Under the pieces are notes generated by a model. It searched no databases. It was not told the DNA's origin and saw only the letters and a list, made by a program, of their open reading frames with translations. Positions 33,007 through 34,168 of a DNA stretch of 64,000 nucleotides are shown piece by piece. The DNA comes from Eledone cirrhosa (lineage: Eukaryota), in the NCBI GenBank assembly GCA_964016885.1, contig OZ024745.1, positions 131,440,001 through 131,504,000 of the forward strand, written 5' to 3'. Made by a program: the position numbers and the translations under genes. Numbering within the stretch: position 1 is the stretch's first letter; every line of letters starts with the position of its first letter.

Positions 33007-33689
33007 AGGTATTTCATTAGAAATATGGTAATGAAAGTGTTAAGTCAAAACTGGGAACATTAGGCCATTGCAGATGAGATGAAATTAGTAAAACACATAA
33101 GATGATGCTGTGTTTAAAATTTGTCCATGGAAAAAGTACATTAAATGATGATCATCATTATCTTACTATCATAATTAAGATGGAACCATATGTCTAAAAT
33201 CCTAAATCTTACAAATGTATGCCCAATGCTCAGTAGTAAGGATGTGAGGCCTATGGTTAAAACGTTAACCACAAAATTCTTCAATCAACTACTTTCATGG
33301 CATAGTTTAAATCAATCACAGCTGACTAAACATATAAAGAAGATTACTCAACAATAACAACAGCAGCAGTAATAACAGCTCATTGTTGGCCTACTTCTGT
33401 CCAGGTTGGCATCTGCTACCAGCTTGCAATTCAAAGTAAACTGATATACCCATGCAGAATTTTTCCTTGGTGTACTCAATGATATACCAAGTAGGTGTTG
33501 ATATTCTAGATGATAGCTGCAAAAATTCTCCATCATTTTAGCTTATGTCATTTAGTTCATTTATACTTGATTAACCTTAATCCATGCCATTGGCTTCTTT
33601 CAGATATTTCTCGGAGACCAATTTTGTATAATATTACCTCAATGATAAATATGCTAATTGCTTCCTCAATTCATTGGCAATACTAACAA

Positions 33690-33720
<31 letters not shown>

Positions 33721-33729
33721 TATATATAT

Positions 33730-34168
33730 AAAATCAAAAGATGGTTAAAAGAGTTCCATGTATTTTATTATGTGCATTTCAAAAACAAATATCATGGGAT
33801 GATATTTGTGTTCTCATCAGATAAAATAGGGAGACATGATATGAAGCTTAAAAAACACTTGCGAGCAATGAAGTGTTAAATCAACATATGTATGCCCAAT
33901 GCTCAGTAAAACACATGTTGATTTAACGCTTCATTGCTCGCAAGTGTTTTTTAAGCTTCATATCATGTCTCTATTTTATCTGATGAGAACGCAAATATCA
34001 TCCCATGATGATATTTGTTTTTGAAATGTACATAATAAAATACATGGAACTCTTTTAACCATCTTTTGATTTTTTATATTATTTTTGCTCCAGTCCTATA
34101 AACTGTTGAGTGCTACTTATCCGATATTTGCATTGCTTTATTGTGCTACAATAAAACTCACCTCCTAC

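Follow-up and report, generated by a model that had tools for sequence, protein, structure and literature searches.

In the parts of the published descriptions considered here, Penelope-like retrotransposons (PLEs) of the Hydra clade possess a C-terminal GIY-YIG, a DKT motif, a CxCx5C linker, and CxxC and CxH motifs around the catalytic E and N, lack CCHH, contain an RWK motif, and are generally shorter than 3 kb. They are further reported to carry a hammerhead motif, to use (TA)n targets, and to display an inverted 5'-truncated copy and a tail of 30–40 nt on one end (PMC8557442). The origin of Penelope-like inverted-repeat insertions was stated to be unresolved in that work, and its description of the Hydra clade, as far as considered here, makes no mention of inserts at the junctions. 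With a purified PLE protein, each strand of the target is nicked and extended, with starts at two RNA sites bounding the tail (PMC11167929), and the capture of host DNA before the 3' pseudo-LTR was described in a rotifer (PMC3846280). In L1 twin priming, reverse transcription is primed from each of the two target strands, and microhomology joins the resulting cDNAs to give an inverted 5' part, according to the portion of the account that we use (PMC2912911). The corresponding portion of a study of L1 in tumours reports templated insertions in 22 cases among ∼3,600 insertions (roughly 0.6%), with templates shorter than 250 bp that are typically situated no more than 15 bp away from the insertion site (bioRxiv 10.1101/2024.08.27.596794). 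Polymerase theta (Pol theta) products are described, again in the sections considered, as patchworks of templated inserts with minimal priming (PMC12426944); the templates are usually very close to the break and the inserts usually shorter than 25 nt (PMC12426944, PMC5068794). Our survey of the literature, mostly at title level, with few subscription journals and no supplements, found no report of flank-templated patches at Penelope inversion junctions.

The window insertion and its family

The window is a 64,000-nt stretch of the Eledone cirrhosa assembly GCA_964016885.1 (contig OZ024745.1, positions 131,440,001 to 131,504,000). On the basis of sequence comparison, we identify a palindrome near its middle as a truncated copy of a Penelope-like retrotransposon bearing Hydra-clade motifs. 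The family is large, with 5,760 exact matches to its inverted end directly after TA repeats (the search pattern required TA), and 79 of 95 distinct insertions contained both an inverted and a forward arm, with a tail of 89 nt on one end. The full-length relative L104, with a forward unit of 3,731 nt, contains an 821-codon stop-free frame with YRDD and, at its C-terminus, a GIY-YIG-like motif (LIY...YFG). In its protein the DKT motif, the CxCx5C linker, and the CxH after N are present, the CxxC before the catalytic E is CNLC (read by eye), the CX2-5CxxC finger is absent, and RWT occupies the place of the Hydra-clade RWK motif. A Pfam search of the family ORF gave no match, and the Hydra clade assignment is by motifs only. 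In comparison with the published sections, the Eledone family has in common with the clade the GIY-YIG, DKT, and CxCx5C features, the CxxC and CxH flanking the catalytic E and N, the lack of CCHH, the hammerhead motif, the (TA)n targets, the inverted 5'-truncated copy, and the one-ended tail, but it differs in its RWT rather than RWK, its length of 3.7 kb rather than <3 kb, and its tail of 89 rather than 30–40 nt.

The window copy is a non-coding end fragment of the element, 85–86% identical to the 3' pseudo-LTR of L104. It is flanked by a (TA)n target microsatellite with a left part at 33691–33725 and a right part at 34171–34229; in the family, the inverted ends follow TA runs. The tail-less inverted arm (33726–33890, minus strand) is an antisense copy of the 3' pseudo-LTR that stops at a family hotspot, the palindrome CATATG, and is 84.5% identical to L104 positions 3640–3473 and 96–99% identical to its closest copies. 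The forward arm (33915–34170, plus strand) is a 5'-truncated sense copy of the pseudo-LTR, 86% identical to L104 positions 3476–3731, and it alone carries the tail of ∼89 nt (34080–34170, plus strand). Within this arm a minimal hammerhead-ribozyme motif is predicted by pattern match at 33973–34041 (plus strand), with a 7-bp stem I, a CTGATGA core, a long stem II that folds, GAAA, and a palindromic stem III that is mutated here. This putative core pattern was found in 80 of 97 arms examined, and an Rfam search of 33600–34300 returned no hammerhead, just hairpin-driven miRNA matches far below gathering scores.

Between the two arms lies a loop whose bases are traced to DNA left of the insertion. 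The sequence-only reading had noted that positions 33888–33908 (plus strand) are identical on the same strand to 33215–33235, and this was confirmed as a maximal match of 21 nt, offset by 673 bp, that cannot be extended. That reading had also held a chance match to be very unlikely, and the expectation for a 21-nt match within 2 kb was 2e-9 (composition-based), with 0 of 64 unrelated flanks matching over more than 11 nt. The 21-mer was located at exactly two sites in the E. cirrhosa genome (2,995,841,428 bases, allowing up to one mismatch) and is thus neither family sequence nor a common repeat. Donor 1 (33215–33235, plus strand), 488 bp left of the insertion edge, lies in single-copy DNA, again in agreement with the original description: in a genome DNA search that skips very common words, the sole match to the donor region 33047–33690 was itself. 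The region upstream of the 21-mer is also imperfectly similar to the end of the left arm, with 30 of 33 columns matching between 33877–33908 and 33203–33235 by blastn. The portion outside the exact match (33203–33214, plus strand, 9 of 12 columns) might be a priming or annealing site.

A second copied piece had been overlooked. A scan of maximal matches across the junction revealed that 33905–33916 (plus strand) is an exact 12-nt copy of donor 2 at 33087–33098 (plus strand, 626 bp left of the insertion edge), with a composition-based chance of 1e-3 within 2 kb and none of the 64 unrelated flanks matching over as great a length. The 24 non-element bases of the loop (33891–33914) are therefore all copied from DNA lying 488 and 626 bp left of the edge, and the proposal that the loop is a copy of local DNA stands for the first piece and is extended by the second. 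The two pieces overlap by AGTA, and the second overlaps the right arm by AT. For the left arm, the claimed microhomology exists, but its length depends on the comparison used: the arm ends at 33890 when compared with the family sequence, which makes the overlap with donor 1 3 nt (ATG), or 2, whereas arm-to-arm symmetry gives the 4 nt originally stated. Overlaps of 2–4 nt are thus present at each switch of the window loop. Public short-read contigs over the donor (33040–33680) contained zero differences, and the best-matching sources may be the assembled sample itself. The loop was spanned by no listed piece of these contigs and RAD-seq runs gave no useful coverage of the site, so the window junction is known from the assembly alone. 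The two arms of the window copy differ at about six sites and are consequently not a single read copied twice.

Arm structure and a survey of family junctions

An unselected set was formed from the 5,760 inverted ends by taking the first 100, which all lie on contig C1. Five loci were removed (four because they were the other end of an insertion already in the set, and L072 for want of an element match), giving 95 distinct insertions, of which 79 had a called forward arm. Inverted arms start at reference position 3642, as imposed by the search pattern, and the end of the forward arms is at 3731 in nearly all cases. At their inner ends, the two arms were often hundreds or thousands of bases apart in element position, as in L062, L068, and L222. 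Both kinds of arm stop at the CATATG hotspot, with or without a partner stopping there; a script scored hotspot stops among the 95 insertions as inverted only in 20, forward only in 8, and both in 17, with at least L113, L200, and L204 misclassified as judged by eye. Since truncation of one arm is independent of the other across copies, a joint between two target-primed cDNAs accounts better for the loop than a fold-back does; most simply, each arm would be a separate target-primed cDNA and the loop would mark where the two 3' ends joined. We infer that the hotspot is the RNA 5' end. In L222 the coding unit starts directly after a pseudo-LTR, an arrangement that would be needed if the transcript starts within the pseudo-LTR. 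A second hard stop was observed in L060/L104, L180, L222, and L225 at coding-unit position 1–2, just past the tail of the upstream pseudo-LTR.

The sequence-only reading had suggested testing family loops for local matches against controls, and the outcome was positive, with six more junctions identified. Approximately 2,050 hotspot junctions had loops of up to 30 nt, and 668 matched a longer-gap pattern; among these 668, the first 50 of the matches listed overwhelmingly resembled re-copies of arm ends or AT runs. Foreign DNA was enriched by requiring a loop to hold three consecutive G/C bases, which are absent from arm-derived inserts. This filter yielded 10 junctions when strict arms were demanded, 13 (the window junction among them) with relaxed arms, and two more with longer loops, for a total of 15; the genome-wide search covered loops up to roughly 95 nt. 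Five of the 15, besides the window, had an exact donor within 2 kb, and a sixth came from the unselected set. The six contain exact copies of 13–50 nt of DNA located 190–1,030 bp from the insertion, on either side and either strand, and unrelated flanks matching as well numbered 0 of 45–65. The donors to the left are 15 nt in reverse orientation at 192 bp (L126/L154, 0 of 45 unrelated flanks), 50 nt forward at 879 bp (L128/L156, 0 of 45), and 47 nt forward at about 700 bp (L070, 0 of 65, from the unselected set). Those to the right are 13 nt reverse at 396 bp (L129/L157, 0 of 45), 30 nt forward, copied twice, at 1,029 bp (L142/L159, 0 of 45), and 16 nt reverse at about 350 bp (L130/L158, 0 of 64). 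The masking rule affects these results, as L157 passes only with a 4-base overlap rule and L158 only under a milder mask; the null for L165 comprised only four flanks and is uninformative. The 50-mer of L128/L156 lies within a repeat family, yet it was exact in 0 of 40 other near-full copies among the fetched loci. The bases shared at the mapped switches number about 1–5 nt (read by eye), and several junctions are patchworks. Foreign inserts vary in length from about 4 to 45 nt. The donors cover all four combinations of side and strand, a spread that points to no particular exposed template strand and does not discriminate between resection and duplex invasion.

Most of the other nine filtered junctions had too few foreign bases to map. 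Long foreign loops without a convincing local donor were L124 (20 kb searched on each side) and L150 (15 kb), and the best local match for the long foreign loop of L148, 11 nt within the 5 kb searched, was equalled by 14 of 45 controls. A further 49 hotspot loops, part unfiltered and part picked by length, included five with at least four unexplained bases and produced no local match of 12 nt or more; L234 had a borderline local match of 11 nt. In the unselected set, 78 of 79 junctions had fewer than five bases unexplained by element sequence, the exception being L070, and the 16 of 95 insertions without a called forward arm, which were unscored, showed no donor other than simple repeats after the arm ends. 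Four donors among the ∼2,050 strict junctions, with a filter that catches 29–47% of 15–30-nt flank pieces, correspond to a frequency of about 0.4–0.7%, and the unselected set gives 1 of 79, or about 1%. We conclude that flank-copied inserts are rare, at about 0.5–1% of junctions, and that most junction inserts copy arm ends.

Some loops merit separate mention. The foreign loop of L150 (G000:C19:22137868-22137957) is itself a palindrome, in which ATC repeats enclose a fragment of another repeat; for the donorless loops of L150 and L124 (G000:C3:31428980-31429062), distant DNA or RNA templates are possible. Hotspot loops in which the final 8 nt of the cDNA occur two or three times in tandem, for example those at G000:C1:123807489 and C1:53125154, resemble telomerase-like repeat addition, and re-annealing of cDNA ends explains them equally well. 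L147 fits the junction pattern but is not a copy of this element, and it was removed.

Origin of the junction patches

We favour, with a probability of roughly 0.58, the interpretation that the patch arose by microhomology-primed template switching, most likely by host Pol theta, while two separately primed cDNA ends were being joined at integration. According to this proposal, the element endonuclease would nick both strands of the (TA)n target, and each strand would prime reverse transcription at one of two fixed starts 89 nt apart, giving a tail-less and a tailed arm. Both cDNAs would then run off a defined RNA 5' end in the pseudo-LTR, leaving the same ATAT end on both. Usually these ends would anneal on the small palindrome, either directly or once a few abortive rounds had copied the arm ends again; in about 0.5–1% of cases, an end would prime on exposed flank 0.2–1 kb away, copy 10–50 nt, release, and re-prime. 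The window copy would have undergone such flank copying twice before the final join. What is established for the window and the family comprises the copied pieces, the overlaps, the independent arm truncation, and the rarity of the event, with the enzyme, the direction of synthesis, and the timing being what we propose. The earlier suggestion that a polymerase jumped from the element onto nearby DNA is thereby retained with respect to local templating by microhomology-primed switching, but its single fold-back is replaced by two jumps between independently truncated arms. The patch is probably a by-product without function.

The 1–5-nt overlaps, the patchworks, and the one doubly copied donor are features described for Pol theta templated insertions. 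In keeping with the published accounts of Pol theta end joining, as far as considered here, the Eledone junctions share the short priming, the abortive rounds, the multi-segment patchworks, and the location of most templates adjoining the junction, here the arm ends; the common arm-derived inserts fit this near-junction, short-insert class. The distal class is less typical: its donors lie 0.36–1.4 kb from the junction and three of its inserts are 30–50 nt long, unlike the usually near templates and inserts of <25 nt, and its substrate of two cDNA ends is one that we infer. Also counting against the favoured interpretation are the long foreign loops of L124, L150, and L148, the failure of donor side and strand to single out a resection-exposed strand, and the lack of a listed read contig across the window junction. 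With respect to the L1 reports considered, the Eledone patches are alike in that genomic DNA is copied in during integration at a similarly low frequency, but they differ in donor position, 190–1,030 bp from the edge with both sides and both strands represented, and in that the patch is at the joint of two cDNAs. L1 twin priming shares with our reading of the Eledone PLE the priming from two strands and the joining by microhomology; the Eledone cDNAs differ from the twin-priming account in having fixed start sites separated by 89 nt and in spanning the same sequence, and the product is therefore a palindrome. The thousands of junctions in this family favour two separately primed, end-joined cDNAs over hairpin self-priming, and the rare patches show access, while the ends are being joined, to DNA as distant as about 1 kb from the target, far beyond the L1 reports.

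Other explanations share some of this evidence. It is possible, though doubtful, that the element's own RT makes the patches, running off the RNA 5' end, re-priming by 2–5 nt on RNA or nearby DNA, copying, and jumping again in a manner resembling telomerase realignment. Many hotspot loops consist of the cDNA's last 8 nt directly repeated, and at 949 of ∼4,100 hotspot arm ends a C stands in place of the element's G, as copying of an RNA cap would give; in addition, release of the cDNA and its pairing with nearby DNA during reverse transcription was proposed for L1 in the part of that study used here (bioRxiv 10.1101/2024.08.27.596794). The extra C sits after the shared ATAT end, often on both arms, and C outnumbered T by 20 to 3 in the first 100 rows (counted by eye); it may be a copied RNA cap that marks the transcription start in the pseudo-LTR, but templated re-priming can give the same letters. 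Similarly, DNA-templated re-priming between cDNA ends or on a nearby arm site, as seen in L059, can also make both the repeats and the C, and template jumping of the R2 type, as described in the accounts considered, proceeds end to end, whereas the Eledone donors are internal. We regard as tentative a PLE RT, sister to telomerase, that re-primes repeatedly off capped RNA, mostly on its own template end and sometimes on DNA up to about 1 kb away. Were this true, the thousands of junctions would be a fossil record of 5'-side closure and of the extent of flank opened at integration. Long perfect palindromes are fragile, and a perfect palindromic apex could instead have formed before a cruciform break whose double-strand-break repair added the templated patch. 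Most patched junctions were indeed found at palindrome centres, where the search had selected for them, but the 47-nt patch of L070 lies precisely where an inverted arm meets a forward arm that differs from it by about 460 nt; being away from a hairpin apex, it weakens the case for later breakage, which we consider unlikely. Patched arms, moreover, lose just 0–4 nt at the hotspot, and 21 of 41 listed apexes persist without insertion (counted by eye).

The geometry of the sequence-only reading, in which a single cDNA self-primes, folds back, and copies itself while sampling the flank en route, corresponds to a self-priming model proposed for PLE palindromes in the part of the literature considered (PMC3846280). 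The location of the stop hotspot on a 6-nt palindrome would suit it, as would the few fold-back-like insertions that are tail-less on both arms with a mirrored flank (L079/L080 and L085/L086). We find it very improbable given that the arms end at different element positions in most copies, including the unequal hotspot stops described above, and that one arm has a tail and the other none. The same reading had the element recording a sample of its neighbourhood as a spacer, and programmed acquisition of this kind could be reconciled with the exact local copies in seven junctions. It is scarcely credible for an event seen at about 0.5–1% of junctions with inserts of no fixed length (about 4 to 45 nt) and no propagation, the 21-mer being present in no other copy, and with carriers that are mostly short non-coding fragments; we therefore do not retain the spacer claim. 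A chance match or an assembly artefact is equally hard to credit: the window loop was spanned by none of the listed public contigs, but the chance expectation of 2e-9, the two donors, the same anatomy at six independent loci, and the ∼6 differences between the arms all argue against it. Template switching during the joining of two cDNA ends thus remains our preferred reading.

Other features of the window and genome

No templated patch was found at the junction of a second Penelope-like element in the window (11999–15666), which has a 591-bp inverted repeat at 99.8% identity and a coding region (12583–14532) that is 43% identical to the L104 protein. A near-perfect 392-bp palindrome at 61797–62188 is about 67% similar to the studied pseudo-LTR; its loop measures 4 nt, and it possesses a tail as well as a hammerhead pattern at 62084. 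Elsewhere in the genome, L108 (positions 1–9473; G000:C1:35311000-35320500), like L079/L080, lacks a tail at either end, and the opposite side mirrors at least 3.2 kb of the L108 flank at 99.3%, representing either a true fold-back duplication of the flank or an assembly artefact. Short palindromes in the window at 855–941, 8332–8443, 36494–36542, and 61528–61661 are probably small inverted insertions of other families, and large tandem repeat arrays occupy 47727–49484, 49662–52453, and 52937–53864.
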